A stretch of 64,000 bases of DNA from Escherichia coli (lineage in GTDB: Bacteria > Pseudomonadota > Gammaproteobacteria > Enterobacterales > Enterobacteriaceae). A program made the translations under genes and the position numbers. A model generated the notes under the pieces. That model saw only the letters and a list, made by a program, of their open reading frames with translations, was not told the origin of the DNA and ran no database searches. The stretch lies in NCBI RefSeq assembly GCF_013122565.1, contig NZ_CP053258.1, one strand, 5' to 3'. How positions within the stretch are numbered: position 1 is the first letter of the stretch; each line of letters starts with the position of its first letter. This document shows positions 5,655 to 47,579 of this stretch, piece after piece.

Positions 5655-5667
5655 TTAGCTCGTACAA

Positions 5668-5696
5668 GGGAAGTGGCTTGCCACTTCCCTTTTTTG
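5668..5696 (+). terminator. Rho-independent terminator after cadA
   Basis: GC-rich hairpin (gggaagtgg...ccacttccc) followed by a T6 run, 14 bp after the cadA stop. Confidence 0.7.
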
Positions 5697-5712
5697 CTCA
5701 TAAGGAGAACAC

Positions 5713-7170
5713 ATGAAAACACCCTCACAGCCGCGCGCGATATACTATATCGTGGCGATCCAAATCTGGGAGTACTTCAGTTTTTACGGCATGCGTGCCT
5801 TACTCATTCTCTATCTCACCCATCAGCTTGGTTTTGATGATAACCATGCCATCAGCCTGTTCAGCGCATATGCTTCTCTGGTTTACGTTACCCCTATTCT
5901 CGGCGGCTGGCTTGCCGACCGCCTGCTCGGCAACCGCACTGCAGTGATTGCCGGCGCGCTGTTAATGACCCTTGGCCATGTGGTGCTGGGCATTGATACA
6001 AATTCAACCTTTAGCCTGTATCTGGCGCTGGCAATCATTATTTGTGGCTACGGTTTATTCAAATCAAACATCAGCTGTTTGCTTGGCGAGCTCTACGACG
6101 AGAACGATCATCGACGTGATGGCGGTTTTTCGCTGCTGTATGCTGCGGGCAATATCGGTTCTATCGCCGCCCCCATCGCCTGCGGCCTAGCTGCTCAGTG
6201 GTATGGATGGCATGTTGGCTTTGCCCTTGCGGGTGGCGGCATGTTTATCGGTTTGTTGATTTTCTTAAGCGGTCATCGTCATTTCCAGTCCACGCGTAGT
6301 ATGGATAAAAAAGCGCTCACTAGCGTGAAATTTGCCTTACCAGTATGGAGCTGGTTAGTGGTGATGCTCTGTTTAGCCCCAGTATTTTTTACCCTGCTGC
6401 TGGAGAACGACTGGTCCGGATATTTGCTGGCGATCGTTTGCCTCATTGCCGCACAAATCATTGCCCGCATGATGATCAAATTCCCCGAACACCGCCGTGC
6501 TCTTTGGCAAATTGTATTGTTGATGTTTGTCGGGACATTGTTCTGGGTACTGGCACAACAGGGCGGCAGTACCATCAGCTTGTTTATCGATCGCTTTGTG
6601 AATCGTCAGGCATTCAATATTGAAGTACCTACAGCACTATTCCAGTCGGTGAATGCAATTGCGGTGATGCTCGCTGGGGTTGTTCTGGCCTGGCTGGCGT
6701 CGCCAGAAAGTCACGGCAACTCAACATTGCGCGTCTGGCTGAAGTTTGCCTTTGGCTTACTGCTGATGGCTTGTGGGTTTATGTTGCTGGCATTTGATGC
6801 CCGACATGCAGCAGCTGACGGTCAAGCGTCAATGGGCGTGATGATATCCGGGCTGGCGCTAATGGGCTTTGCCGAACTCTTTATTGACCCGGTGGCGATT
6901 GCGCAAATCACGCGTCTGAAAATGTCTGGCGTATTAACCGGTATTTATATGCTGGCAACAGGCGCGGTCGCCAACTGGCTGGCAGGCGTCGTGGCACAGC
7001 AGACGACAGAGTCGCAAATTAGCGGTATGGCAATTGCAGCTTACCAGCGATTCTTTTCTCAGATGGGAGAGTGGACGTTGGCTTGTGTCGCGATCATCGT
7101 GGTATTGGCCTTTGCTACCCGTTTTCTGTTTAGCACGCCGACGAATATGATACAGGAGAGCAACGATTAA
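5713..7170 (+). CDS. dtpC: Dipeptide/tripeptide:proton symporter (POT/PTR2 family)
   Basis: 485 aa MFS-type permease; position between cadA and lysU matches dtpC (yjdL). Confidence 0.85.
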
Positions 7171-31120: not shown

Positions 31121-33345
31121 TATCGTTCTGCCGTGAAAAGTGTTTGAATATCATCGCGTAACAACTGAGCGTCGGTGTAAATCCAGCCGTGAGTCATCAC
31201 AGTCTGCTGCAATTGCTGCTGCATCAACCTGACCACCGATTCATTTTGTTGACGCAGAGCCAGACTTTCGCGTAAACGCGTCTGTAATTCCGTCAAACAT
31301 GAAGCGAACTCAGCGAAAAAAGTATTCATGCCTGCCGTAACAGATTCATCGACCTGCTCTGCCAGAACTTTAGCCATTTGTTGGCAATAAAGATCGACTT
31401 CTGCGCTTAATGCTCGTTGCAACACACTGTAATCAACCGTTTCTGTCGGGGATTTCTCATTTCCCCGTCCCCAGTCGGGCTGATTCAACCAGCGCGAAAA
31501 AGTCTCACGCACAACGCCTAAACGCGTGCTCTGCTCGTCCGTTGCTTCCTGGCGCGAAATGACTTCACTGAACAGCTGGCGAGTGTTGAAGTGGGGAACT
31601 GCGCCGTGAAAAACAGGAAAATGAAACCCAGGACGAAACCCTGACTCGCTCAATTCCATTTTGACTTGTTGTTCAATGGGGCGAATAACATCGGTTAACA
31701 CCCGGCAAAGAGTGGATTCAAGCTCGGCAAAACGCAGCGTAAAGTCGCGACTGATGGTGTTCTGCGCCGTCTGTAACAGTGTCTCACAGCGGGTACGAAT
31801 CTCGCTTAACGGCTCCGAATCATCCTGAAACAAGGCGGCTAACTGCGCATTCAGCGCATCTTGCTGTTGACGCAGAAAGTGGTTGGCCGAGGTCAGGGCC
31901 AGCTCGATTTCATGTTTAATCTCGCCGCTCACCTGCGCCTGATTGAGTTGCAATAGCTGCAAACTTTCTTCGACCTGATGGATATTTTGCCGCAATTGTT
32001 CGCAAGCGACGTTTAACCCGTGCGCACGAAAATCCAGGTATTCCCGCGCCTGCTGCGCGTAATTCAACAGTTTATGCGCGGCAGATCGCAGAGCACACAA
32101 CGAGGCGTTAGCGTAAGCGGCATGAAGCAACGCCTGAATTGGCTTGGCGAACAGCGAATCTTCCCACAACTGATCGGCAGCATGATGAATATGTTCGAGG
32201 TCCGCCAGATCGGCATGACGCCAGCGCCTGCCGAGCGCGGCATGGGCAAAATCTTCCACCCAGCGTTGTTGCTCTGGCGGTGGTAACTTACCGTTGTTGG
32301 CTAACTCATGGCGCGCCCGATTCGCCAGGTAGCCCCACATCGACGACACCGGAAATATCTGCTGTGGCGTAATACAGCCTTTCATCAGCGTCCCGGAAAT
32401 CAGTGCCCGCACCTGGTCGGCGTCGTCACTGTTACGATCCTGTTGATCGAACTTATTGACCAGCACATACAGCGGCACCGATTGCCCCACCGCCAAAATC
32501 GCCTCACGGACCTCTTCATCGGAGATCGATTTCAGTTGCGTATAATCCAGCACCGCCAGTACCGCCGAGGCGCGTGCCAGCTGCTGGTTAAGCATTTTTT
32601 GCAGATGCGGTTGCCCGGCTTCATTTGGCCCGGGGGTATCCAGTAACGTCAATTGACCGGGATAACTCTCCAGCCCCGCCAGATGGACAAACTCCACTTC
32701 AATCACGGGAATATGCTCAATGGCGGCGTAAGCAGAAAAAGGAAAATCGACGTCCAGCGCCTTCGCCAGTCGCACCAAATCATTCAAACTTTTCAGACAA
32801 TGAAAAATAGGCTGGGCACCCAGATAATATTTTTCGAAAGCGACGCCATTTTCGATCCGCTGCATAAGCGCACGCATATCTTTATCTATTTCCAGCACAT
32901 CGGTCAGATGCTTAATATCGCAATCACGCAGACGCTGTTGTAATTTTTGAATTAAACAATCGATTGGCGCGACATGTGAAAAATGCAGTACCGGTTCCTT
33001 TTGCCCGGGCGTATGGCGAATAAGCGTCGGCAGCGCAGTCATTGGGCGATTGCGATTAGGCAGAACCTCCGTACCAACAATGGCATTAATGGTGGTTGAT
33101 TTCCCTGCTTTCATGGTACCGACAATTGCCAGCACCATTTCCAGTCGGGAAATTTTACGCAACTCATTATTCAGCATCGCGTGACGCTCGGCGATATTAG
33201 GCTGACTCCAGGGTAAAGCCAGTTGTGGCGCATCGTCTCCGGGTACAGAGAGAGGCATTTTTTCCAGTAACTGCAACTGTTGGCGAGAAAGCTGTAACAG
33301 CCGTTCAGCCTCCTGACTTAACTCATACAGGGTCTGTGTGTACAT
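31117..33345 (-). CDS. crfC: Dynamin-like GTPase CrfC (YjdA)
   Basis: 742 aa; N-terminal P-loop GTPase (GTMKAGKST) followed by long coiled-coil regions. Confidence 0.8.
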   Translation of the reverse strand: MYTQTLYELSQEAERLLQLSRQQLQLLEKMPLSVPGDDAPQLALPWSQPNIAERHAMLNNELRKISRLEMVLAIVGTMKAGKSTTINAIVGTEVLPNRNRPMTALPTLIRHTPGQKEPVLHFSHVAPIDCLIQKLQQRLRDCDIKHLTDVLEIDKDMRALMQRIENGVAFEKYYLGAQPIFHCLKSLNDLVRLAKALDVDFPFSAYAAIEHIPVIEVEFVHLAGLESYPGQLTLLDTPGPNEAGQPHLQKMLNQQLARASAVLAVLDYTQLKSISDEEVREAILAVGQSVPLYVLVNKFDQQDRNSDDADQVRALISGTLMKGCITPQQIFPVSSMWGYLANRARHELANNGKLPPPEQQRWVEDFAHAALGRRWRHADLADLEHIHHAADQLWEDSLFAKPIQALLHAAYANASLCALRSAAHKLLNYAQQAREYLDFRAHGLNVACEQLRQNIHQVEESLQLLQLNQAQVSGEIKHEIELALTSANHFLRQQQDALNAQLAALFQDDSEPLSEIRTRCETLLQTAQNTISRDFTLRFAELESTLCRVLTDVIRPIEQQVKMELSESGFRPGFHFPVFHGAVPHFNTRQLFSEVISRQEATDEQSTRLGVVRETFSRWLNQPDWGRGNEKSPTETVDYSVLQRALSAEVDLYCQQMAKVLAEQVDESVTAGMNTFFAEFASCLTELQTRLRESLALRQQNESVVRLMQQQLQQTVMTHGWIYTDAQLLRDDIQTLFTAERY

Positions 33346-33651
33346 AGAAAATTCTTCCTTAAAGCAAATTTTGTTACTTTTATTTAGCCAGATTGTTTTT
33401 GAGTTCTGTTTTCGGCTTTTATAATTACTGCAAGAAATAATTTTATATTTAGCGTATTGTTTTTTATTAGAATAAATAACGTCTTCCGATACGTTTAAAA
33501 CGTCAGAAAGATAAAAATATCACGTGAATTAAAAAAAGAACAAGTAGAGCATTAACCTTATCTTAAATAATAAATAGAGGCAAAAAGATTATTTTCTTTT
33601 TGCGTTTTCTTTCAAATGAAAACGATCGTCGTCTAAAATCAGCAGTACCCC

Positions 33652-33679
33652 CGACAAACTCAGGGATTTTGTGTATAAT
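33652..33679 (+). promoter_or_regulatory. Candidate sigma70 promoter for phnA with an extended -10
   Basis: tgtgTATAAT extended -10 at about 33670..33679, with a weak -35-like cgacaa 16 bp upstream; about 70 bp before the phnA ATG. Confidence 0.4.
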
Positions 33680-33746
33680 TGCGGCCTTTTTCGGCAATCT
33701 GCCGTTTTTTGGCGCTTTTGCCCTGCTGACTTTTGAGGAAATCCAC

Positions 33747-34082
33747 ATGTCATTACCACACTGCCCAAAATGCAACTCCGAATACACCTACGAAGATAAC
33801 GGCATGTACATCTGCCCGGAATGTGCCTACGAATGGAACGACGCAGAACCTGCACAGGAAAGCGACAAGCTGATCGTTAAAGATGCTAACGGCAATCTGC
33901 TGGCTGACGGCGACAGCGTTACCATCATTAAAGATCTGAAGGTGAAGGGTAGCTCTTCGATGCTGAAAATTGGCACCAAAGTGAAAAACATCCGCCTGGT
34001 TGAAGGCGACCATAACATCGATTGCAAAATCGACGGTTTTGGTCCGATGAAACTAAAATCTGAGTTTGTGAAAAAGAACTGA
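33747..34082 (+). CDS. phnA: PhnA-family zinc-ribbon protein
   Basis: ORF 33600..34082; start at [13 protein letters not shown] gives 111 aa; CPKC...CPEC zinc-ribbon. Confidence 0.8.
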
Positions 34083-34097
34083 TTGTATTGTGATCGG

Positions 34098-34279
<182 letters not shown>

Positions 34280-34347
34280 CCCTCCAATCTCAACTGTTCA
34301 AATTTCGAACTACACTTAACTGGCTTCTCTTAACTGAGGTCATCATC

Positions 34348-34782
34348 ATGCCGTTAAGTCCCTACCTCTCTTTTGCCGGTAACTGTTCCGACGCGATTGC
34401 CTATTATCAACGTACGTTGGGCGCGGAACTGCTCTATAAAATCAGCTTCGGCGAAATGCCAAAATCAGCGCAGGACAGCGCCGAGAACTGCCCTTCCGGA
34501 ATGCAATTTCCCGATACCGCCATCGCTCATGCCAACGTGCGCATTGCCGGAAGCGACATCATGATGAGCGATGCTATACCGTCAGGAAAAGCTAGCTACT
34601 CCGGCTTTACGCTGGTGCTCGATTCGCAACAGGTCGAAGAAGGAAAACGCTGGTTTGATAACCTTGCCGCTAACGGAAAAATCGAAATGGCCTGGCAGGA
34701 AACTTTCTGGGCGCATGGCTTCGGCAAAGTCACCGATAAATTTGGCGTACCGTGGATGATTAATGTCGTTAAACAACAATAA
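34348..34782 (+). CDS. phnB: PhnB-like glyoxalase/bleomycin-resistance fold protein
   Basis: ORF 34249..34782 runs through the BIME; start placed at MPLSPYLSF (GAGG ribosome-binding site upstream), about 144 aa. Confidence 0.75.
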   Translation: MPLSPYLSFAGNCSDAIAYYQRTLGAELLYKISFGEMPKSAQDSAENCPSGMQFPDTAIAHANVRIAGSDIMMSDAIPSGKASYSGFTLVLDSQQVEEGKRWFDNLAANGKIEMAWQETFWAHGFGKVTDKFGVPWMINVVKQQ

Positions 34783-34832
34783 TAGCTACCTGCTGCGCCC
34801 ACTGGCGTTAATTCCCAAAAAGGAGAAATACC

Positions 34833-35267
34833 ATGCCTGCTTGTGAGCTTCGACCGGCCACGCAGTACGACACCGACGCGGTTTACGCACTGATTTGTGA
34901 GCTAAAACAGGCGGAGTTTGACCACCACGCGTTTCGCGTGGGCTTTAACGCCAACCTGCGCGACCCAAACATGCGCTACCATCTGGCGCTGCTGGATGGC
35001 GAAGTTGTCGGCATGATCGGCCTGCATTTGCAGTTTCATCTGCATCATGTCAACTGGATCGGCGAAATTCAGGAACTGGTGGTGATGCCGCAGGCACGCG
35101 GTTTGAACGTTGGTAGCAAGTTGCTGGCGTGGGCGGAAGAGGAAGCCCGTCAGGCCGGGGCCGAAATGACCGAGCTTTCTACCAACGTGAAGCGCCACGA
35201 CGCGCACCGTTTTTATCTGCGCGAAGGCTATGAGCAGAGCCATTTCCGTTTCACTAAGGCGCTGTAA
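34833..35267 (+). CDS. phnO: GNAT-family N-acetyltransferase, PhnO-like
   Basis: 144 aa; acetyl-CoA binding motif (Q/R-x-x-G-x-G/A pattern: [11 protein letters not shown]); recognised as PhnO-like from sequence and from its position after phnB and before yjdP. Confidence 0.55.
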
Positions 35268-35279
35268 GATGAGCCTACC

Positions 35280-35609
35280 TCATCGCCCATACTCATCTTC
35301 CATTCTCCGCTCTTCATCTTCTAGCTGCCGACGCTCCTGATCAAGCTGGCGCTGGCGATCGTCCAGTTGCCTGCGGCGATCTTCAAACTGGCGGCGGCGA
35401 TCGTCATATTGTCTGCGACGATCGTCGCTCACTTCACGCTGCCAGCTGTCGTCGCGCGAATCTTCATAGTCTCGCCCACGGTCAGGGTTATAAGCGTCGT
35501 TAATCGCCTGCTGAATATTGCCAATGGTGTCGTCGATAATATCGGCCTGGGCCGGAACGGTGGACAGCGTGAGCAGGGTGAAAAGAAAGAGCGTGGAGTG
35601 GTGTTTCAT
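35280..35609 (-). CDS. yjdP: Small secreted low-complexity protein YjdP
   Basis: 109 aa; N-terminal signal peptide, then an Arg/Asp/Gln/Glu-rich repetitive tail. Confidence 0.7.
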   Translation of the reverse strand: MKHHSTLFLFTLLTLSTVPAQADIIDDTIGNIQQAINDAYNPDRGRDYEDSRDDSWQREVSDDRRRQYDDRRRQFEDRRRQLDDRQRQLDQERRQLEDEERRMEDEYGR

Positions 35610-35677
35610 AAACTCAGCCTCGCAACAAAGTTAATACAAGGTAGGCAAAGGTACCTGTCGCGAGTAGCGGAGGATTC

Positions 35678-37939
35678 TCAATTCTCTTGCCCCAGAACCT
35701 GCGCCAGCTGCGCGCGGGTAAAAGGTTTGCGCAACAGCGCTACGTCTGGCAGCGCGGGGTTATGGCTGGGGCGTAAATCCTGGCCGCTGATGAGTAGCAG
35801 CGTCAGATGCGGGTAAAGTTCGCGGGCCGCATTGACCACTTCTGCGCCGCTCATGCCGCCTGGGAGCATTAAATCGCTGATAAAAATATCGATTTCCGCT
35901 GATGCCGCCAGCAGGTCCAGCGCCTGTTCGCCGCTGCTCGCTTCCAGCGTCAAATAGCCCAGCAGGTGTAACTGCTCGCAGATGGTCTGGCGCACCGCGG
36001 CTTCATCTTCCAGCACGAGCACCAGTTTATCGCCGCTGACGGCTGTCTGTTCTACCGCCGCTGGCGATAGGTTTTTCGCCGCCGTCAGCGCGCGGGGAAG
36101 CTGTAATCTGACCGTTGTCCCCTGCCCCGGCGCGCTTTCAATTTCTACACGCCCACCGGACTGGCGCACAAAACCATAGACCATCGACAAGCCCAGCCCG
36201 CTGCCACTCCCCGTCTGTTTGGTGGTAAAGAACGGCTCAAAGACCTGGCTTTTCACCGCCTGCGACATACCGCTGCCATGATCGATGACCTCCAGCGCCA
36301 CCATGTCCTGACGCTGCCCACTGCTGCGGGTAACGCGCTGATTCCAGGTACGAATTTTGATAATTCCCGTCAGCCCTTCCATCGCATCGCGGGCGTTCAT
36401 CACCAGATTGATGATGGCATTTTCCAGCTGGCTGACATCAATCCACGCGGGCCATGCCGGAGACTGCGCTTCAATCTCAATCGTCAGCGTCGCCGGTAAG
36501 GAGTGGCGCATTAATTCGCTTAACTCTTCCAGCAGTGTTTTTAGCTCAACGGCTTGCGGATGTAAGGACTGCTTGCGGGAAAACGCCAGTAGTCGCTGGG
36601 TCAGTAGCGCGCCACGTTCGGCAGCTTGCTGCGCCCGCTGTATTCGCGGCGCGTCGGGTGAGTCCGTGTTCACCAGTTCCAGGCTGCCAATAATTACCGC
36701 CAACAGATTATTAAAATCATGGGCCAGCCCACCCGTCAATTGCCCAACCGCTTTCAGTTTCTGGCTGTGTAATAGCGCCTCTTCCAGCCCCTGCCTCTCG
36801 GTTTGGGCAATCTCCATCTGCGTGGTTTTCTCTTTCAACAGCCTTGACGTTCGTTCGAGTGACGCGGTATTGCGGGCAAAAACGTTAAAGGCGCGCGCCA
36901 GTTCACCCAACTCATCGCGCCGCTGTAACGCCGGAAAAGTGACGTCCGCTTCGCCGTGCGCCAGGCGGCTCATAGCGCGGGAAATCGCCGTCAGGTTAGA
37001 GCCGAGATTGCGATAGATATACCAACCTGCAAATGCGGTGATCACCACCGCTAACAGAGCGAAAATCATGATCACCCTCTCGCCGGAGCGCAAATCCTGG
37101 TAACTTTGCGCCACCCGCTGACCGGAGAGCATCGCCACCTGTTCGGCGTAACGGTTGATGTCGCCATTAAGGATCGCCACCAGCGCTTTGATGTGAAACA
37201 TATACCAGCTGATTGCCAGATCGCTTTGCTCCAGAGCGGCAGAAAGCGGCGCGAGTTTACGCAGTTCATCATTGAAATCATTGAGTAGCGTATTAACCAA
37301 TGGCGTATCGCTGTGGGTCGGCAACGCAGACATTACCCCGACCAGTTGATGAATAATCGCCTGCGGCGCGGGGGTGGCAATAGCGGCAACAATCAGTCGG
37401 TTCATCTCGTTAAGCAAAATATCATCTTGCGCATTAGTGACTTTTTGCAGATGCCGCAGATAACTTAAGTTTTGATACAGCGAACTTAACAGCGCGTTGC
37501 GCTCCAGATGTCGCCTTTGCCCGCGCTCCAACATTCCGCCGACGCTGGTTTGCAGTTCGTTGCTACGCGTGATGATGCGCGCCACCAGCCCGGCCTCCTG
37601 CTGCGCTAACGGCGCGTTCGCCAGTTGTGCAAGCGAGCTTTTTAATGCCCGCTGTGTCTCCTGCAATCGCTCGGCTTCGCCTTTATATTCCAGCGCTCCC
37701 ACCACTTGTGACAATCGCACCGCCGCCGTCGCCACATTTGCCGTGTCGCGCGCCAGATTCAGGCTGCCGGTCATATCATCCACCGTTTGCTGCTGTACCA
37801 GCTCCTGCATCTGGCTGGCATGACGAAAGCCCATTACCGCCACGCCGCTGACCATCAGCGTCACCGCTACCACCAGCAAATTCAAAAGCAGCAATCGCCC
37901 GCGCGCGCTGGCAAAAAAGTGACGTCCGGGGTGCGCCAT
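35678..37939 (-). CDS. Hybrid sensor histidine kinase with periplasmic domain and C-terminal receiver
   Basis: ORF 35678..38035; start placed at the in-frame ATG (MAHPGRHFF) with a GGAG ribosome-binding site, about 753 aa; TM1, ~280 aa periplasmic domain, TM2, HAMP, H-box (GGLAHDFNNLL), ATPase domain, receiver domain (LVLVLEDE...ISDLMLPGGMSG); no HPt domain seen. Confidence 0.8.
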   Translation of the reverse strand: MAHPGRHFFASARGRLLLLNLLVVAVTLMVSGVAVMGFRHASQMQELVQQQTVDDMTGSLNLARDTANVATAAVRLSQVVGALEYKGEAERLQETQRALKSSLAQLANAPLAQQEAGLVARIITRSNELQTSVGGMLERGQRRHLERNALLSSLYQNLSYLRHLQKVTNAQDDILLNEMNRLIVAAIATPAPQAIIHQLVGVMSALPTHSDTPLVNTLLNDFNDELRKLAPLSAALEQSDLAISWYMFHIKALVAILNGDINRYAEQVAMLSGQRVAQSYQDLRSGERVIMIFALLAVVITAFAGWYIYRNLGSNLTAISRAMSRLAHGEADVTFPALQRRDELGELARAFNVFARNTASLERTSRLLKEKTTQMEIAQTERQGLEEALLHSQKLKAVGQLTGGLAHDFNNLLAVIIGSLELVNTDSPDAPRIQRAQQAAERGALLTQRLLAFSRKQSLHPQAVELKTLLEELSELMRHSLPATLTIEIEAQSPAWPAWIDVSQLENAIINLVMNARDAMEGLTGIIKIRTWNQRVTRSSGQRQDMVALEVIDHGSGMSQAVKSQVFEPFFTTKQTGSGSGLGLSMVYGFVRQSGGRVEIESAPGQGTTVRLQLPRALTAAKNLSPAAVEQTAVSGDKLVLVLEDEAAVRQTICEQLHLLGYLTLEASSGEQALDLLAASAEIDIFISDLMLPGGMSGAEVVNAARELYPHLTLLLISGQDLRPSHNPALPDVALLRKPFTRAQLAQVLGQEN

Positions 37940-38052
37940 ATCACGCTCCGTGAAGAAAAATCGCAATATGACAAATATGAACGGCTTCTGACATTTTGCA
38001 TTTACTTTCCTGTGATGGAGTGCTGATATCGACAACCTCGCAGGAGTCCACC

Positions 38053-39573
38053 ATGAACAGCACGCCGGTTCTGGAGATGCGCAATATTGCCAAAGCTTTT
38101 GGCAAATTTTATGCGCTCAAAGGGGTGGATTTGACGGTCTACCCAGGAGAGATCCACGCCCTGATGGGGGAAAACGGCGCCGGAAAAAGCACGCTGATGA
38201 AGGTGCTGGCGGGGGCGTATACCGCCACCAGCGGCGAGATCCTGATAGACGGCAAGCCCTTTCACATTCGCACGCCGAAAGATGCCTTAAGCGCCGGTAT
38301 TACCCTGATTTATCAGGAGATGCAGCTGGCACCCAATTTGACGGTGGCAGAAAATATTTTTCTCGGCAGCGAGCTTTCCCACGGCGGGCTGGTGCAGCGT
38401 AAAGAGATGCTGGTGCAGGCGCAAAAAGTGATCGACCGCCTCGGCGCGCAGTTTAACGCCAGCGATAAGGTCATGACGCTGACCATTGCCGAGCAACAAC
38501 AGGTCGAAATCGCCCGGGCGCTGCATCGCAACAGCCGCATTCTGGTGATGGACGAACCCACCGCAGCCCTCTCCTCGCGTGAAACTCACCGCCTGTTTGA
38601 ATTAATCATGCGGCTGCGCGATGAAGGGATGGCGATTATCTACATTAGCCACCGCATGGCGGAAGTGTATGAGCTTTCCGATCGCGTCAGCGTGCTGCGC
38701 GACGGGCAATACGTTGGCAGCCTGACCCGCGACAACCTCAACGCCGGGGAGCTGGTGCGGATGATGGTCGGCAGGCCACTGAGCGATCTGTTCAATAAAG
38801 AGCGCGATATCCCGCTCGGTAAAGCCCGCCTGAACGTTCACCACCTGACCGACGGCGGCAAAGTCCAGCCGAGTAGCCTGCTGGTGCGTTCCGGCGAAAT
38901 TGTTGGCCTCGCCGGACTGGTGGGTGCCGGACGTTCCGAACTGGCGCAGTTGATCTTCGGCGTGCGCAAAGCGACAGGCGGAATGATTGAAGTCGATGGC
39001 GAACCGGTGGTGATCCACTCCCCGCGCGAAGCCATCGATCTTGGCATTGGCTTTCTCACCGAAAACCGCAAAGAACAAGGCTTATTCCTTGAAATGGCGG
39101 CAGCCGAAAACATCACCATGGCAACCCTGGAGCGCGACGCCCGCTGGGGAATGCTCAATCGCAAAAAAGCGCAAACCATTTCCGATGACGCCATTAAGTT
39201 GCTCAACATTCGCGTGCCTCATGCCCAGGTGCGCGCGGGCGGGCTTTCCGGCGGCAATCAGCAAAAACTGTTGATCTCCCGCTGGGTGGCGATTGGCCCG
39301 CGCATTTTACTGCTCGATGAACCCACCCGCGGCGTGGACGTTGGCGCAAAAAGCGAGATCTACCGGATCATGAACGAGATGGCACGCAAGGGCGTGGCGA
39401 TCCTGATGATCTCCAGCGAACTGCCGGAGATAGTGGGAATGAGCGATCGCGTCTATGTGATGCGTGAAGGCAGCATTGCCGGTGAGTTAAACGGCAAAAA
39501 CATCACCCAGGAAAACATTATGACCTTAGCGACCGGAGTTAACGACGCCCATTCCCAGGCGGTGACCTCATGA
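38053..39573 (+). CDS. Sugar ABC transporter ATP-binding protein with two nucleotide-binding domains
   Basis: ORF 37996..39573; start at MNSTPVLEM (AGGAG ribosome-binding site), about 506 aa; two Walker A motifs (GENGAGKST and GLVGAGRSE) and two signature motifs (LSGGNQQK), as in the RbsA/AlsA/MglA family. Confidence 0.85.
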
Positions 39574-40544
39574 CGACCTCTGCAAAAACCTCTGCCAAAA
39601 AAATGCTGATGAGCGATCTGATGCAAACGGTCGGCATCTTGCCCATTTTGATTCTGATCGTGGCGGTATTTGGCTTTATCGCGCCAAACTTTTTTAACGA
39701 AAGCAACCTGCTAAATATTACCCGCCAGGCGTCGATCAACATTGTGCTGGCGGCGGGAATGACCTTCATCATTTTGACTGGCGGGATCGATCTTTCTGTA
39801 GGTTCAATTCTCGGCACCACGGCGGTGGCGGCGATGGTCGTCTCCCTTAGCCCTGAGTTCGCCATGCTGTCGATCCCGGCGGCGCTGATGCTCGGTCTGC
39901 TGCTGGGGCTGTTCAACGGCGCGCTGGTGGCCTTTGCCGGATTGCCGCCGTTTATCGTCACGCTTGGCACCTATACGGCGCTGCGCGGGGCGGCGTATCT
40001 GCTGGCGGACGGCACCACGGTTATCAACTCCAACATTAATTTCGAGTGGATAGGCAATAACTATCTCGGGCCGGTCCCGTGGCTGGTGGTGATTGCGCTG
40101 GCGGTGATCGTGGTGTGCTGGTTTATTCTGCGCCGCACCACGCTTGGTGTTCATATCTACGCCGTCGGCGGCAATATGCAGGCGGCGCGTCTTACCGGCA
40201 TTAAGGTCTGGCTGGTGCTGCTGTTTGTTTATGGCATGAGCGGCCTGCTTTCAGGGCTTGGCGGGATTATGAGCGCCTCGCGGCTGTACAGCGCCAACGG
40301 CAACTTAGGCATGGGTTACGAACTGGACGCCATTGCGGCGGTGATCCTCGGCGGCACCAGTTTTGTCGGCGGCATCGGCACCATCACCGGCACGCTGGTC
40401 GGGGCGCTAATTATCGCCACGCTCAACAATGGCATGACCTTAATGGGCGTCTCTTACTTCTGGCAACTGGTGATCAAAGGGGCGGTGATCATCATTGCGG
40501 TGCTGATCGACAAATACCGTACCCGACACCATCAAAGTGCATAA
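39570..40544 (+). CDS. Sugar ABC transporter permease
   Basis: 324 aa, about 10 TM segments; start overlaps the ATPase stop. Confidence 0.85.
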
Positions 40545-40562
40545 ACACATGAGGAATACAGC

Positions 40563-41504
40563 ATGAGATTGAAGCCCTTAGTGACCGCGCTCTGTGCAGG
40601 CGCGCTGCTGGCCGCAGCACCGTTCGCCCAAGCGAAAGAACTGAAATCGATAGGCGTAACGGTGGGCGATCTGGCGAACCCGTTCTTCGTGCAGATCACC
40701 AAAGGCGCGGAGCTGGAAGCACGCAAACTGGCAGGCGATAACGTCAAAGTGACGCTGGTTTCCAGCGGCTACGATCTGGGCCAGCAGGTGTCGCAGATAG
40801 ACAACTTTATCGCCGCTAACGTCGATATGATTATCCTCAACGCTGCCGATTCAAAAGGGATCGGCCCGGCGGTGAAACGGGCGAAAGATGCCGGGATCGT
40901 GGTCGTCGCGGTTGACGTGGCGGCAGAAGGTGCCGATGCCACTATCACTTCCGATAACACCCAGGCAGGCGAAATGGCCTGTAAATACATCACCGATCGC
41001 CTGAAAGGCAAAGGCAATGTGGTGATCATCAACGGCCCGCCGGTGTCCGCCGTGCAAAACCGCGTTGAAGGATGCCAGACTGAATTTAAACGCCATCCTG
41101 ACATCAAGGTACTCTCTGACAACCAGAACGCGAAAGGCAGTCGTGAAGGCGGGCTGGAGGTAATGACCGGACTGCTGGCGGCAAATCCGAAGATCGACGG
41201 TGTATTTGCGATTAACGATCCGACAGCGATCGGTGCCGATCTGGCAGCAAAACAGGCGCAACGTAACGAGTTCTTTATTGTCGGCGTAGACGGAAGCCCG
41301 GACGCCGAAGAGGCGCTAAAACGTGAGAACTCGTTGTTTGTCGCCACTCCAGCACAAGATCCCCAGGTGATGGCAGCAAAAGCGGTTGAGATCGGTTATG
41401 ACATTTTGCAGGGCAAACCCGCGCCGAAAGAGCCGGTGCTGATCCCGGTGACGATGATCGATAAAAACAACGTCGGCAATTACAAAGGCTGGACGGTGAA
41501 ATAA
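40563..41504 (+). CDS. Periplasmic sugar-binding protein (RbsB/AlsB-like)
   Basis: 313 aa; signal peptide (MRLKPLVTALCAGALLAAAPFAQA), type I periplasmic binding fold. Confidence 0.85.
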   Translation: MRLKPLVTALCAGALLAAAPFAQAKELKSIGVTVGDLANPFFVQITKGAELEARKLAGDNVKVTLVSSGYDLGQQVSQIDNFIAANVDMIILNAADSKGIGPAVKRAKDAGIVVVAVDVAAEGADATITSDNTQAGEMACKYITDRLKGKGNVVIINGPPVSAVQNRVEGCQTEFKRHPDIKVLSDNQNAKGSREGGLEVMTGLLAANPKIDGVFAINDPTAIGADLAAKQAQRNEFFIVGVDGSPDAEEALKRENSLFVATPAQDPQVMAAKAVEIGYDILQGKPAPKEPVLIPVTMIDKNNVGNYKGWTVK

Positions 41505-41558
41505 GCCCACACGCCGGGCGGCGCAGCTGCCCGGTCACCGCTAAGGAGAACGCTTTCG

Positions 41559-42242
41559 ATGAAACGCTCCGCTATAAACGACATTCTCGGCCATACACGG
41601 CAATTCTTTTCGCAACATGACGTACATCTGCCGCCCTTTGCCAGTTTCTCGCCTGCTCAATGGCAGCAGCTCGACACCGCCGCGTGGGAGGAGGTTTTTG
41701 ATCTCAAACTCGGCTGGGATGTTACCGCTTTTGGTGGCAACAACTTTGCAGCACAGGGGCTGACGCTGTTTACCCTACGTAACGGCTCAGCAAAAGGAAT
41801 GCCGTATGTGAAATGTTACGCCGAGAAGATCATGCATGTGCGCGATGCGCAGGTCACGCCAATGCATTTTCACTGGCGTAAGCGTGAGGACATTATCAAT
41901 CGCGGCGGCGGTAATTTAATTGTTGAACTGTGGAATACCGATAGTAACGAGCAAACGGCTGATAGTGACGTTACGGTGGTGATAGACGGCTGCCGCCAGA
42001 AACATACTGCAGGCACTCAGTTGCGCCTGTCTCCCGGCGAAAGTATCTGCCTGCCGCCCGGCCTGTATCACAGCTTTTGGGCGGAAACCGGTTTTGGCGA
42101 TGTACTGGTTGGCGAAGTCTCTTCTGTCAATGACGACGACCACGATAACCACTTTTTACAGCCACTGGACCGCTACAACCTGATTGACGAAGACGAACCT
42201 GCACAGTTGGTGTTGTGTAACGAATACCGCCAGTTCCGCTGA
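41559..42242 (+). CDS. Cupin-fold sugar isomerase, D-lyxose/D-mannose isomerase-like
   Basis: 227 aa; cupin metal-binding pattern (HxH...E...H: HFHWRKREDIINRGGG...LYHSF); operon context with transporter, kinase and aldolase. Confidence 0.65.
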   Translation: MKRSAINDILGHTRQFFSQHDVHLPPFASFSPAQWQQLDTAAWEEVFDLKLGWDVTAFGGNNFAAQGLTLFTLRNGSAKGMPYVKCYAEKIMHVRDAQVTPMHFHWRKREDIINRGGGNLIVELWNTDSNEQTADSDVTVVIDGCRQKHTAGTQLRLSPGESICLPPGLYHSFWAETGFGDVLVGEVSSVNDDDHDNHFLQPLDRYNLIDEDEPAQLVLCNEYRQFR

Positions 42243-42256
42243 ATAAGGAGAACGTT

Positions 42257-43117
42257 ATGTCATTGATTTCTCTCGCTGAAGGGCTGGCTCATGCCCGCGA
42301 ACATCGCTATGCGTTAGGTGCGTTTAATGTACTGGACTCGCACTTTTTACGCGCCTTGTTTGCTGCTGCCAGACAAGAACGTTCGCCCTTTATTATCAAC
42401 ATTGCCGAAGTACATTATAAATATATCTCGCTGGAATCCCTGGTCGAGACAGTGAAATTTGAAGCGGCGCGCCATGCCATTCCGGTGGTATTAAATCTCG
42501 ATCACGGGCTGCATTTTGAGTCGGTGGTGCAAGCGTTGCGGCTGGGATTCAGCTCGGTAATGTTTGATGGCTCCACGCTGGGGTATGAAGAAAATGTCCG
42601 CCAAACGCGGGAAGTGGTGAAAATGTGCCATGCCGTTGGCGTATCGGTAGAAGCTGAACTGGGCGCGGTGGGTGGCGACGAAGGCGGTGCGCTCTATGGT
42701 CATGCCGATGAATCCCTGTTTACCGATCCGCAACTGGCGCGTGATTTTGTCGACCGTACCGGCATTGACGCGCTGGCCGTGGCGATTGGCAATGCACACG
42801 GCAAATATCGCGGCGAACCGAAACTCGATTTCCTACGCCTCGACGCTATCCGCCAGCAGGCTGCTATCCCGCTGGTATTACACGGCGGCTCAGGGATTAG
42901 CGATGCCGATTTCCGCCGCGCCATCGAACGGGGTATCCACAAAATCAATTTCTACACTGGCATGTCGCAAGCGGCGCTGGCTGCCGTTGAGGCCCGAATG
43001 GCGCACCGTCAGCCGATGTATGATGAGTTTGCCGAGTTACTACTAGCAGTGGAAGCCGCCATCAGCGATACGGTTGCACAACAGATGCGTATTTTCGGCA
43101 GTGCGGGGCAGGCATGA
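42257..43117 (+). CDS. Class II ketose-bisphosphate aldolase family protein
   Basis: 286 aa; FBA class II / tagatose-bisphosphate aldolase family (LDHG, HGGSG motifs). Confidence 0.75.
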   Translation: MSLISLAEGLAHAREHRYALGAFNVLDSHFLRALFAAARQERSPFIINIAEVHYKYISLESLVETVKFEAARHAIPVVLNLDHGLHFESVVQALRLGFSSVMFDGSTLGYEENVRQTREVVKMCHAVGVSVEAELGAVGGDEGGALYGHADESLFTDPQLARDFVDRTGIDALAVAIGNAHGKYRGEPKLDFLRLDAIRQQAAIPLVLHGGSGISDADFRRAIERGIHKINFYTGMSQAALAAVEARMAHRQPMYDEFAELLLAVEAAISDTVAQQMRIFGSAGQA

Positions 43118-44115
43118 TGGAACGTAGAGGGATTATCGCCGCAGGCAATATGTTGGTTGACCACGTCCATCAGATTATCCAGTGGCCAGAGCGCGGCTGG
43201 CTGGCGGAGATTACCCACAGCGAACGCTCCACCGGCGGCGCGCCGCTTAATGTCCTGCTGACACTGGCGAAAATGCGCACCGGGTTGCCGTTACAGGCGG
43301 TTGGGCTAATCGGTCAGGACAGCGACGGCGATTACATCATGGCGATGCTTGAGCAATATCACGTCAATCGTCAGCATGTGCAGCGCACTACCTTTGCCCC
43401 GACGTCGATGTCACAGGTGATGACCGACCCAAGCGGGCAGCGGACGTTTTTCCATTCGCCGGGTGCAAACAGACTTTTGGATCTTCCGGCGTTCGATCAG
43501 CTCGATAACACCATGAAGATTTTCCATCTCGGCTATTTACTGTTGCTCGACAGCCTGGATATGCCGGACGATGTTTACGGCACCCGTAGCGCACGACTGC
43601 TGGCGCAAATGCGTGATACTGGCTTTGAAACCTCACTCGACCTGGTCTCCCGCAAGGGCGATCCGCGTTATCAGCCGCTGGTGCTGCCCGCGTTGCGCCA
43701 TCTGGATTATCTGGTAATTAACGAACTGGAGGCCGGGGAGTTTAGTGGGCTGGAAATTCGGTTACCCAACGGCGAACCGCATATCGCGCATATTGCTGCC
43801 GCCGCGCGTGAACTGTTAGATGCGGGCGTGCGCCAGCGTGTGGTGATCCACTGCCCGGAAGGGGCCTGGGGAGAAACCCCGGAACAGGGCGGCGTGTGGA
43901 TCCCTTCGCAAAAGTTAGAACAACGGGAAATTATCGGCAGCGTCGGTGCGGGCGATGCATTTTGTGCCGGATTTTTATATGGCTGCCATGAGTGCTGGGC
44001 GCTAACTGAGAGCATAAAACTGGCACATGCCTGCGCGCGGGCAAGCCTGTTATGCGCTAATGCCATCGACGGGGCAAAAACGCTGGAAGAGTTGCAAACA
44101 GAAATGTCAGATTAA
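43114..44115 (+). CDS. PfkB-family carbohydrate kinase
   Basis: 333 aa; C-terminal GAGDAF motif of the ribokinase/PfkB family; start overlaps the aldolase stop. Confidence 0.75.
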   Translation: MMERRGIIAAGNMLVDHVHQIIQWPERGWLAEITHSERSTGGAPLNVLLTLAKMRTGLPLQAVGLIGQDSDGDYIMAMLEQYHVNRQHVQRTTFAPTSMSQVMTDPSGQRTFFHSPGANRLLDLPAFDQLDNTMKIFHLGYLLLLDSLDMPDDVYGTRSARLLAQMRDTGFETSLDLVSRKGDPRYQPLVLPALRHLDYLVINELEAGEFSGLEIRLPNGEPHIAHIAAAARELLDAGVRQRVVIHCPEGAWGETPEQGGVWIPSQKLEQREIIGSVGAGDAFCAGFLYGCHECWALTESIKLAHACARASLLCANAIDGAKTLEELQTEMSD

Positions 44116-44819
44116 TGCACGTCGGCAGCGAAGACATACCCCAGGCCGCGCAGAGTTTTAATCAACATCGGCTGATGCGGATTGAGTTCGATTTTGCGTC
44201 GTAAGCGCATGATTAAGACGTCGATGGTGCGATCAAACACTTCCACGCTATCGCTATGAGTGAACGCCAGCAGCTGCTCGCGGCTTAATACCCGACGGGC
44301 ATTTTGTGCCAGGGCCAGTAACAAGCCATATTCGCCCTGAGTCAGCTCGACATGTTGTTGTAGCGGACTATGCAGTTGACAGCGAATGGTATCGAGATAC
44401 CAGCCATTGAATGACAGCCCGGCGTTTTTCTCCTCGTTAACCGCCAGCGCGCCAACCCGTCGCAACACCGCTTTCAGTCGTGCGACCACCACCCGCGGGG
44501 TGAACGGTTTGCAGATGTAATCATCCGCGCCCATTTCCAGCCCGACCACCACATCAGACTCACTGCCCATGCCGGTCAACATCACCACCGGCAATGTCGG
44601 ACGCAGTTTCTGGATTTGCTGCAATATCCTCAGGCCGTTGGTATCGGGTAGCATCATATCCAGCACCACCAGCGCAATGTCAGGATCGCCCTCAATACGC
44701 AATATGGCCTCCTGTCCGGTATGGCAGACTGAAACCGTAAAGACATGTTCACTTAACACGTCCTGCAGCAGTGCGCAGATAGCCGTGTCATCATCCACCA
44801 CCAGCACGACGGGTTTCAT
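44112..44819 (-). CDS. OmpR-family response regulator
   Basis: ORF 44112..44837; start placed at MKPVVLVVDDD (GGAG ribosome-binding site), 235 aa; receiver domain plus winged-helix output (TLRGLGYVF); 3' end overlaps the convergent kinase gene by 4 bp. Confidence 0.8.
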   Translation of the reverse strand: MKPVVLVVDDDTAICALLQDVLSEHVFTVSVCHTGQEAILRIEGDPDIALVVLDMMLPDTNGLRILQQIQKLRPTLPVVMLTGMGSESDVVVGLEMGADDYICKPFTPRVVVARLKAVLRRVGALAVNEEKNAGLSFNGWYLDTIRCQLHSPLQQHVELTQGEYGLLLALAQNARRVLSREQLLAFTHSDSVEVFDRTIDVLIMRLRRKIELNPHQPMLIKTLRGLGYVFAADVH

Positions 44820-45109
44820 GGTTACACTCCGCATCATTCATCTGATTAATCATTGTGCGTACTTCTTGTCGAAGTGAAAGCTGAAAGTAATATAAATAAT
44901 AAAAATATAAGTCAGGTCACATTATTGATGATAGTAATAAATATGCCGTACTTTTCCCTCTTCAGCACAAATGCCTAATAAAATGGCGCGTTCCGCTCAC
45001 ACTTCCGCTTATTAAAGTCGCAAATTCCCAATTATGATAACCCCAGCTTTAAATGACGTATTTTGCATGGATTACATATTTACGACATAAATGATAAATG
45101 GAGATTTAT

Positions 45110-47095
45110 ATGAATAACTCTCGGTTATTCCGTTTGAGCAGAATTGTTATTGCGTTAACTGCCGCCAGCGGCATGATGGTAAATACCGCTTACGCGAAAG
45201 AGGAAGCGAAAGCCGCCACTCAATATACCCAACAGGTTAACCAGAATTACGCCAAATCATTACCGTTTAGCGATCGTCAGGATTTTGACGATGCCCAGCG
45301 TGGATTTATCGCCCCGCTGCTGGATGAAGGTATTCTGCGTGATGCGAACGGTAAAGTTTACTACCGCGCGGACGATTACAAATTTGATATTAATGCCGCA
45401 GCGCCGGAAACCGTAAACCCCAGCCTGTGGCGTCAGTCGCAGATCAACGGCATTTCTGGCCTGTTCAAAGTCACCGATAAAATGTATCAGGTGCGCGGCC
45501 AGGATATCTCTAACATTACGTTCATTGAGGGCGAGAAAGGCATTATTGTTATTGACCCGCTGGTGACGCCGCCTGCCGCAAAAGCCGCACTTGACCTTTA
45601 CTTCCAGCATCGTCCGCAAAAACCGATTGTTGCCGTTATCTACACTCACAGCCACACCGACCACTATGGTGGCGTGAAAGGCATTATCTCTGAAGCCGAT
45701 GTTAAATCCGGCAAAGTTCAGGTGATTGCCCCTGCTGGCTTTATGGACGAAGCCATCAGCGAAAACGTGCTGGCGGGTAACATCATGAGCCGCCGTGCGC
45801 TCTACTCTTACGGTCTGTTACTGCCGCACAACGCACAAGGCAACGTGGGTAATGGTCTTGGCGTGACGCTGGCAACGGGTGACCCGAGCATTATTGCACC
45901 GACTAAAACTATCGTCAGAACTGGCGAGAAGATGATTATCGACGGCCTGGAGTTTGACTTCCTGATGACCCCAGGTAGCGAAGCGCCAGCCGAAATGCAC
46001 TTCTATATTCCGGCCCTGAAAGCCCTGTGTACCGCCGAGAACGCCACGCATACCCTGCACAACTTCTACACTCTGCGCGGCGCGAAAACCCGCGACACCA
46101 GCAAGTGGACCGAGTATCTGAACGAAACGCTGGATATGTGGGGTAACGACGCGGAAGTATTGTTTATGCCGCACACCTGGCCGGTCTGGGGCAATAAGCA
46201 TATCAATGATTATATTGGTAAATATCGCGATACTATCAAGTACATTCACGACCAGACCCTGCACCTGGCGAACCAGGGCTACACAATGAATGAAATCGGC
46301 GACATGATTAAGCTGCCGCCTGCGCTTGCCAATAACTGGGCCAGCCGCGGCTATTACGGCTCTGTCAGCCACAACGCCCGCGCGGTGTATAACTTCTATC
46401 TTGGCTATTACGACGGTAACCCGGCTAACCTGCATCCGTATGGTCAGGTGGAGATGGGTAAACGTTACGTGCAGGCGCTGGGCGGTTCTGCCCGCGTCAT
46501 CAACCTGGCGCAAGAAGCGAACAAGCAAGGTGATTACCGCTGGTCGGCAGAACTGCTGAAACAGGTGATTGCCGCCAACCCGGGTGACCAGGTCGCGAAG
46601 AATCTGCAAGCGAATAACTTTGAACAGCTGGGCTATCAGGCCGAGTCCGCCACCTGGCGCGGTTTCTACCTGACCGGCGCGAAAGAGCTGCGCGAAGGGG
46701 TGCATAAGTTCAGCCACGGCACCACCGGTTCCCCGGACACCATTCGCGGAATGTCGGTCGAAATGCTGTTCGACTTTATGTCCGTTCGCCTCGATAGCGC
46801 GAAAGCCGCGGGTAAAAATATCAGCCTGAACTTCAATATGAGCAACGGCGATAACCTCAACCTGACGCTGAACGATAGCGTGCTTAACTACCGTAAAACG
46901 CTGCAATCCCAAGCTGACGCCTCTTTCTACATCAGCCGTGAAGATCTGCACGCCGTGCTGACCGGACAAGCCAAAATGGCGGATCTGGTAAAAGCGAAGA
47001 AAGCCAAAATTATTGGCAATGGCGCGAAACTGGAAGAAATTATTGCTTGTCTGGATAATTTCGATTTGTGGGTGAATATCGTAACCCCAAATTAA
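45110..47095 (+). CDS. yjcS: Metallo-beta-lactamase-fold alkyl sulfatase
   Basis: ORF 45098..47095; start at MNNSRLF gives 661 aa; signal peptide, HxHxDH motif ([10 protein letters not shown]). Confidence 0.8.
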
Positions 47096-47303
47096 TGTCA
47101 CTCACTTTTGGGGGCGCTTAAGCCCCCAAAAGCATTTATTATAAAAATACATACAACCAATTAATACATAAAATATATAAGTTATGAATGCGGTGGCTGA
47201 ATAAAGCTATTTTTATTCATCAAGAAAATAGCCATACTGACGCCTTCAATGGATATTGATATTCACTACAGATATTGTTCGCAGCAGACAGGATGTATTT
47301 AAT

Positions 47304-47579
47304 ATGCCAACAGTTCTCTCTCGCATGGCGATGCAACTCAAAAAAACAGCCTGGATAATTCCCGTCTTCATGGTTTCGGGATGCTCATTATCTCCGGCAA
47401 TCCCGGTGATCGGCGCTTATTATCCCAGCTGGTTTTTCTGCGCCATTGCCAGCCTTATTTTGACGCTCATCACGAGGCGAATTATTCAGCGGGCAAATAT
47501 CAATCTGGCATTTGTCGGAATTATTTATACCGCTCTTTTTGCTCTCTACGCCATGCTGTTCTGGCTGGCATTTTTCTAA
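47304..47579 (+). CDS. ytcA: Small lipoprotein YtcA
   Basis: ORF 47256..47579; start at MPTVLSRM gives 91 aa; lipobox (MVSGC) and two hydrophobic segments; directly upstream of mdtN. Confidence 0.6.
   Translation: MPTVLSRMAMQLKKTAWIIPVFMVSGCSLSPAIPVIGAYYPSWFFCAIASLILTLITRRIIQRANINLAFVGIIYTALFALYAMLFWLAFF

Follow-up and report, generated by a model that had tools for sequence, protein, structure and literature searches.

Introduction

The closest described relative of the locus considered here is OI167, a genomic island of Escherichia coli O157:H7 that is inserted between yjdP and yjcS, in the place of the als locus (Yang et al. 2023, PMC10128022). The same authors named its genes lmvK, lmuXYZIAK and lmvR, and a 2024 review (PMC11644481) ties the locus tags of this system to their work; the kinase and regulator genes also go by the alias rbfSR. 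Here we analyse a stretch of 64,000 nucleotides of E. coli (contig NZ_CP053258.1, assembly GCF_013122565.1; hereafter the window) that carries a 9.3 kb sugar-utilisation island, which we identify with high confidence as OI167. The chromosome that hosts the island is that of an ordinary E. coli, the first 20 kb of the window showing 99.2% identity to such strains, and the system itself is already known.

In O157:H7 strain EDL933, growth on D-lyxose is impaired by deletion of lmvK, lmvR, lmuI or lmuZYX, and the H410A and D54Q mutants do not complement. Moreover, lyxose and mannose strongly induce lmuKAIZYX in a manner dependent on lmvK and lmvR, and overexpression of lmvR raises lmuX 694-fold (all Yang et al. 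2023, PMC10128022). The island, the structure of its isomerase, the regulator site and the growth phenotypes are thus all in the literature (2010, 2022 and 2023). An earlier note on this DNA, made from the sequence alone, had held that the substrate and the regulatory logic were not established; this is out of date, since both were published in 2022-2023, and the growth of deletion mutants and the promoter induction that it proposed as experiments have likewise been published for EDL933 (Yang et al. 2023, PMC10128022).

Results and Discussion

The alignment (blastn) of the window with E. coli RIVM_C036569, which is free of the island, breaks off at 35593 and picks up again at 44889. The insert therefore spans 35594-44888, or approximately 9.3 kb; the earlier note had recognised the island and had put its size slightly too high, at 9.5 kb. 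G+C content is 54-59% within the inserted segment compared with 43-47% at its junctions. The left flank is yjdP (NF041443, above cut-off) and the right flank yjcS, and between them lie eight intact ORFs in the order and orientation that the note had given. Start codons of the eight genes were chosen to agree with the RefSeq annotation of orthologous loci. The features are as follows.

35594-44888, no strand: OI167-type inserted segment between yjdP and yjcS (blastn against island-free RIVM_C036569)
35678-37939, minus strand: lmvK (rbfS), hybrid sensor histidine kinase, 753 aa (Pfam domains)
38053-39573, plus strand: lmuX, ATPase of a sugar ATP-binding cassette (ABC) transporter with two nucleotide-binding domains, 506 aa (closest NCBIfam models AraG, XylG and RbsA)
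39570-40544, plus strand: lmuY, ABC permease, 324 aa (RbsC-like, below cut-off)
40563-41504, plus strand: lmuZ, periplasmic sugar-binding protein, 313 aa (RbsB-like, 150 bits against a cut-off of 337)
41559-42242, plus strand: lmuI, cupin D-lyxose/D-mannose isomerase (NF051472; PDB 3kmh/3mpb)
42257-43117, plus strand: lmuA, class II (F_bP_aldolase family) ketose-phosphate aldolase, 286 aa (NF005284)
43114-44115, plus strand: lmuK, PfkB-family carbohydrate kinase, 333 aa (weak matches to IolC, ribokinase and YihV)
44112-44819, minus strand: lmvR (rbfR), OmpR/PhoB-family response regulator, 235 aa, with Asp54 (models below cut-off)

The window and OI167 share the eight genes, their order and orientation and the yjdP-yjcS site, and the encoded proteins are 97-100% identical at full length (tblastn against O157:H7 strain 7409). 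The two also have the same LmvR box and the same phospho-acceptor residues. The window differs in holding a distinct allele (96.7% DNA identity to the O157 allele) with a 3-aa deletion in the sensor domain, and in a backbone whose neighbouring phn operon has been cut down to phnO. The stop codons of lmuK and lmvR, which converge, share 4 nt (44112-44115), and the same arrangement is seen in O157:H7. We could find no convincing terminator between these two genes, and read-through from the induced lmu operon would therefore run antisense to lmvR.

In E. coli K-12, the same chromosomal slot is occupied by rpiB-rpiR-alsBACEK, which also combines a CUT2 ABC transporter with catabolic enzymes, and the transporter subunits of the island give strong, albeit sub-threshold, matches to the AlsA/B/C and RbsA/B/C models. 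That the cluster is nonetheless the canonical allose/rpiB locus, or merely a paralogue of the ribose (rbs) type, has next to no chance of being correct. Every subunit falls short of the cut-off that would confer such an identity (AlsA 493 bits against 772, AlsC 232 against 396, AlsB 106 against 335, RbsA 528 against 745, RbsB 150 against 337), and there is no AlsE, AlsK, RpiR or RpiB in the island. Where K-12 als has an epimerase and an allokinase under RpiR, the island has an isomerase, an aldolase and a PfkB kinase under a two-component system. Moreover, deleting the O157 orthologue leaves growth on ribose normal (Yang et al. 2023, PMC10128022). The earlier view that the cluster is distinct from the K-12 locus therefore stands. 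A third state of the yjdP-yjcS interval occurs in RIVM_C036569, which carries neither the als operon nor the island and has a lone RpiB-family ORF of 318 nt (4522-4839); other E. coli genomes that were sampled have the same annotated gene set at this position.

The system has been described as specific to or associated with enterohaemorrhagic E. coli (EHEC; O157:H7, O145:H28 and O55:H7) by Yang et al. 2023 (PMC10128022), by Liu et al. 2022 and in the 2024 review (PMC11644481), all of which base an evolutionary account on this. We find that it is not restricted to EHEC, and occurs in non-EHEC E. coli, in cryptic Escherichia and in approximately 30 species of relatives. The comparison of the yjdP-yjcS interval across E. 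coli, which the earlier note had called for, was made by megablast and revealed the island in 410 of the 5,426 complete E. coli genomes, O157:H7 included, always as a single chromosomal copy. Among them are isolates from pigeon, chicken, goat, sewage and the environment, as well as O78 and O169:H41 strains. The closest allele (98.5% DNA identity) is that of VE-T9, a Vietnamese strain with a genome of 4.57 Mb. Orthologues of the kinase with 95-99% identity are found in Shigella boydii, E. ruysiae, E. marmotae and further Escherichia species, and in Escherichia sp. E1V33 the island adjoins yjdP, as it does in the window. Kinase orthologues at 82% identity are present throughout the Citrobacter freundii complex. 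In a scan of species representatives, the order of the eight genes is kept in approximately 30 species of Citrobacter, Enterobacter, Leclercia, Lelliottia, Huaxiibacter, Silvania and Pseudenterobacter, with identities across genera of 89-99% for the transporter, 78-93% for the enzymes and 73-82% for the kinase and regulator. No Yersinia locus was found when genomes were scanned with peptides of the sensor domain, a scan that needs exact peptides and so does not show absence.

The 113 bp between the divergent lmvK and lmuX genes (37940-38052, exactly the divergent promoter region that had been proposed from the sequence) contain two mapped features.

37966-37980, plus strand: LmvR binding site, direct repeat ATATGA-N3-ATATGA (ATATGACAAATATGA), a perfect match to the published footprint repeat
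37988-38016, plus strand: putative lmuX promoter, with a -35-like CTGACA (37988-37993), a 17-nt spacer and a -10-like TGTGAT (38011-38016), suggested by conservation across genera

LmvR of O157:H7 binds in electrophoretic mobility shift assays and protects positions -41 to -62 of PlmuX from DNase I, a footprint that holds ATATGA-N3-ATATGA (Yang et al. 2023, PMC10128022). Independently of this footprint, we aligned the lmvK/lmuX intergenic regions of 41 loci, gathered from one-genome-per-species contigs with the kinase sensor domain as query. The sole invariant block reads (A/C)TATGACAAATATGAAC, then CTTCTGACATTTTGCATTTAC, five variable bases and CTGTGATG. The repeat ATATGA-N3-ATATGA is present as a single copy in 41 of the 43 loci, which represent about 10 genera, and its copy at 37966-37980 is the only perfect match within the window. 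The hexamers CTGACA and TGTGAT are invariant across genera and lie 17 nt apart. We infer that they are the -35 and -10 elements of the lmuX promoter, because the footprint coordinates map onto the repeat if transcription starts at approximately 38024. A scan of the divergent region for sigma-70 consensus promoters returned none; the scanner will have missed this promoter because its -10 hexamer lacks the A at position 2.

The LmvR site also resembles that of TorR, whose tor box is CTGTTCATAT (PMC9239176): ATATGAAC(G/A)G corresponds to the reverse complement of this box, at 9 of 10 positions in the window (ATATGAACGG) and at 10 of 10 in Enterobacter-type loci. This likeness fits the TorR-like nature of LmvR. 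Upstream of lmvR itself, matches to the repeat in the window carry 3 mismatches and lie in AT-rich sequence; in Escherichia the island boundary is merely 70 bp upstream of this gene. In Enterobacter, Leclercia, Lelliottia and their relatives, a palindromic element of 60-110 bp that resembles repetitive extragenic palindromes (REP; ..CCCTCTCCC..GGGAGAGGG..) lies inserted between the start of lmvK and the LmvR box. Escherichia and Citrobacter lack this element, and the adjoining LmvR box and promoter stay invariant.

The assignments of a cupin isomerase, a class II aldolase, a PfkB kinase, a sugar ABC transporter, a hybrid sensor kinase and an OmpR-type regulator, made at first from the sequence, all held up in database searches. 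LmuI scores 439 bits against NF051472, a curated D-lyxose/D-mannose isomerase model with a cut-off of 350, and aligns over its full length (524 bits) with EcSI, the solved O157:H7 enzyme (PDB 3kmh/3mpb), differing at 7 of 227 residues (~97% identity). LmuA scores 573 bits against NF005284, a class II aldolase model of the PF01116 fold with a cut-off of 406, and has 7ncc, 7nc7, KbaY, YdjI and AgaY as its relatives in the PDB. Among curated models and the PDB, the divergent PfkB protein LmuK has only weak matches, to IolC, ribokinase and YihV and far under the cut-offs; YdjH is among its solved relatives. The transporter is a CUT2-type ABC system; LmuX falls short of the NCBIfam equivalog cut-offs for AraG, XylG and RbsA, and LmuXYZ as a whole resemble the Ara, Xyl, Rbs and Als systems and miss every equivalog cut-off. 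LmuX is ~100% identical to its O157:H7 counterpart and 89-94% identical across genera, with corresponding cross-genus values of 94-97% for LmuY and 94-99% for LmuZ. LmuZ is also ~88% identical to the solved structure 4rwe, presumably a Yersinia pestis protein.

Such a gene set recalls the routes encoded by RhaA/B/D, by FucI/K/A and by the PfkB and class II aldolase pairs YdjH/YdjI and IolC/IolJ, in which a single operon takes an aldose through a ketose and a ketose phosphate to trioses. It departs from them in that LmuI is a cupin, unlike RhaA and FucI, in that LmuA has the FBA (PF01116) fold rather than that of fuculose-phosphate aldolase, and in being governed by a two-component system instead of an AraC- or DeoR-type regulator. 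We are highly confident that the OI167-type island is a self-contained, sugar-inducible catabolic module. Judging from homology and gene content, LmuXYZ would import an aldose, LmuI would convert D-lyxose to D-xylulose or D-mannose to D-fructose, LmuK would phosphorylate the ketose and LmuA would split the ketose phosphate into triose units. D-lyxose or D-mannose would induce the operon through LmvK and LmvR, and phosphorylated LmvR on ATATGA-N3-ATATGA, just upstream of the lmuX -35, would turn on lmuXYZIAK; both steps, as well as autoregulation of lmvR by LmvR, which may also operate here, have been shown for O157:H7. LmvK would hand its phosphate directly to LmvR, and its attached receiver may act as a sink or modulator. 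The sequence of import, isomerisation, phosphorylation and cleavage under a dedicated sensor and regulator, as the earlier note had laid it out, is the model of Yang et al. 2023, Fig. 3A (PMC10128022). Consistent with the module being a unit, kinase, transporter and regulator are linked in every complete locus, even in two loci without lmuI, lmuA and lmuK.

Several observations weigh against this account. O157:H7 can grow on lyxose without lmuK and lmuA, and the island measurably helps growth on mannose only when manA is deleted and lmvR overexpressed (Yang et al. 2023, PMC10128022). No sugar has been reported to bind LmvK, and a second group names riboflavin as the signal (Liu et al. 2022). 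In one study, deletion of lmvK left the expression of the locus of enterocyte effacement (LEE) on mannose unchanged. Finally, the induction and growth data come from EDL933, the island allele of which is only as close to that of the window as the DNA identity given above.

The first of these points bear on the identity of the substrate. For O157:H7, isomerisation of D-lyxose and D-mannose by LmuI has been shown. The enzyme has a Km for mannose of 19.8 mM, and LmuK of O157:H7 has fructokinase activity, phosphorylating fructose in vitro (Yang et al. 2023, PMC10128022). Neither lyxose nor mannose has a clear need for the whole pathway, given that lmuK and lmuA are dispensable, the effect on mannose is marginal and the Km is high, and so the cognate substrate may be another. 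It is possible, if rather unlikely, that the module serves a different aldose with the C2-C3 configuration of lyxose and mannose (e.g. D-talose, L-gulose, L-ribose or a 6-deoxy-hexose), for which LmuI, LmuK and LmuA would all be needed, with lyxose and mannose as side substrates. Cleavage of the ketose-1-phosphate would then yield dihydroxyacetone phosphate and an aldehyde, following the pattern of the rhamnose, fucose, YdjH/YdjI and IolC/IolJ routes, and a complex of LmuZ with LmvK would sense the sugar in the manner of TorT and TorS. Enzymes of the YdjI, IolC and YihV type act on ketoses phosphorylated next to the carbonyl, and YdjI is among the solved relatives of LmuA, with IolC and YihV among the weak ones of LmuK. 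Moreover, LmuA (86-91% identity across genera) and LmuK (80-93%) are at least as constrained as LmuI (78-88%), and two species have lost the enzymes yet keep kinase, transporter and regulator. When the literature was searched for a natural route from lyxose through xylulose-1-phosphate, only papers on synthetic pathways came up. Against a different aldose stand the strong induction of the operon by lyxose and mannose and the ~60% identity of LmuXYZ to an annotated mannose transporter of Herbaspirillum (both Yang et al. 2023, PMC10128022).

The two reduced loci are those of Enterobacter sp. RIT418 and Phytobacter massiliensis, in which lmvK, lmuXYZ and lmvR are kept and lmuI, lmuA and lmuK are lost. 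In Phytobacter massiliensis the regulator gene directly abuts the gene for the binding protein.

LmvK consists of a first transmembrane helix, a helical periplasmic domain of ~250 aa, a second transmembrane helix, HAMP, HisKA (His407), HATPase_c and a receiver (Asp689). The 753 aa of the window protein compare with 756 aa in O157:H7, one copy of an NDF-NDF tandem at about residue 220 being gone (window about 37279-37281), and there are 17 further substitutions. His407 and Asp689 correspond to the published His410 and Asp692, because the 3-aa deletion shifts the numbering. LmvR retains Asp54 and is 98% identical to its O157:H7 counterpart; its scores against the OmpR, VirG, PhoB and TorR models are all below cut-off. 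The periplasmic region of LmvK has no match in Pfam, and a sequence search of the PDB gave a best E value of 0.73. The family of this sensor domain is very small, with 86 representatives among 1.84 billion, mostly fragments, and the few distant full-length relatives have an extra PAS-like segment between HAMP and the kinase core.

An AlphaFold2 model of the periplasmic region, built from 22 sequences, is confident (pLDDT 88, pTM 0.77) and all helical and predicts a TorS-like double four-helix bundle, the structural matches coming from this predicted fold alone. Such a fold would be equally compatible with direct ligand binding, as in McpS, and with sensing through a binding protein, as in TorT-TorS and XylFII-LytS. 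LmvK and LmvR share with TorS/TorT/TorR a hybrid kinase with a receiver, a TorR-like regulator and a site that resembles tandem tor boxes. However, LmvK has no HPt domain (Pfam), similarity of the sensor-domain sequences is undetectable, and the target of LmvR is a sugar operon rather than a respiratory reductase. The sole binding protein of the island is LmuZ, which is RbsB-like (150 bits) and scores 42 and 24 bits against TorT models with cut-offs of 200 and 310.

The absence of an HPt domain also bears on how the phosphate reaches LmvR. Yang et al. 2023 (PMC10128022) bring in an unknown HPt protein, a point against the account given above. LmvK contains no HPt domain in Pfam searches and stops 5 residues past the receiver match, and no further gene is conserved within the eight-gene block across the loci compared. 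Because there is no HPt in the protein or in the conserved eight-gene module, the phosphate most likely goes straight from the histidine of the dimerisation and histidine phosphotransfer (DHp) domain of LmvK to LmvR, which is more economical than an unknown HPt protein. This fits the finding that RbfS autophosphorylates and passes its phosphate to RbfR in vitro (Liu et al. 2022).

Two further observations concern lmvK in other genomes. In VE-T9, the holder of the closest island allele, the gene is annotated as frameshifted (3733-5992), and at the Citrobacter koseri locus, which has no lmu operon, an in-frame stop interrupts it (717-1904). Such lesions suggest that the sensor is decaying in some lineages.

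In EHEC that carry the LEE, LmvR (RbfR) is also reported to switch on ler. This raises the question of whether RbfS/RbfR could be primarily a riboflavin sensor that controls virulence (ler and the LEE), its place around a sugar operon being incidental. Riboflavin raises z5692 and z5684 transcripts, boosts the autophosphorylation of purified RbfS and induces the LEE in a manner dependent on rbfS and rbfR, and RbfR leaves a footprint on the ler promoter (all Liu et al. 2022). We nevertheless consider this explanation improbable. Kinase, regulator and transporter are syntenic in approximately 30 non-Escherichia species as well as in E. ruysiae, E. marmotae and non-EHEC E. coli, and the invariant regulator site is located in the promoter of the sugar operon. 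When compared with the conserved intergenic block, the ler footprint agrees at 13 of 21 positions, a score that 11% of shuffles also reach (p about 0.11), and so we claim no motif shared by ler and lmuX. Moreover, when 33000-47500 was scanned with Rfam (E up to 1), the island itself yielded no FMN or other riboswitch, no small RNA and no other match.

Citrobacter, Enterobacter and their relatives, as well as the non-EHEC carriers of the module, are not known to have the LEE. If these carriers do lack it, control of the sugar operon is ancestral and control of ler in EHEC is derived, a secondary co-option, as module and binding site are conserved in many species taken to be without the LEE.

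Outside the island, its flanks in the window show just 92-95% identity to most E. coli. A host from a cryptic Escherichia clade, which such values might suggest, is rejected on the 99.2% identity of the first 20 kb to ordinary E. coli. The phn operon is nearly gone (33346-35609), leaving the order crfC (minus strand), yjdM, yjdN, phnO and yjdP (minus strand). The genes phnC to phnN and phnP are absent in the window and in VE-T9; O157:H7 and RIVM_C036569 keep phnK to phnP. Between yjdM and yjdN lie two tandem copies of naRNA4 (RF02564, a REP-derived nucleoid-associated RNA) at 34100-34176 and 34200-34276, which score 88 and 102 bits, above the Rfam gathering score.

Conclusions

In summary, the island in this window is very probably OI167, a sugar-inducible catabolic module. 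A more far-reaching and tentative hypothesis, which we put forward as rather doubtful, is that this is an old sugar-catabolic unit of the Enterobacteriaceae, rather than an innovation of EHEC, whose cognate sugar is one other than the lyxose and mannose so far identified, that sugar-loaded LmuZ docks on the TorS-like LmvK, and that the published circuit from mannose or riboflavin to the LEE in O157:H7 is a recent co-option of this unit. The wider distribution sharpens the questions of which ligand is sensed, by which mode it is sensed and what roles LmuK and LmuA play. The value of this analysis is that it corrects the supposed restriction of the system to EHEC, with the regulator site unchanged across its carriers.

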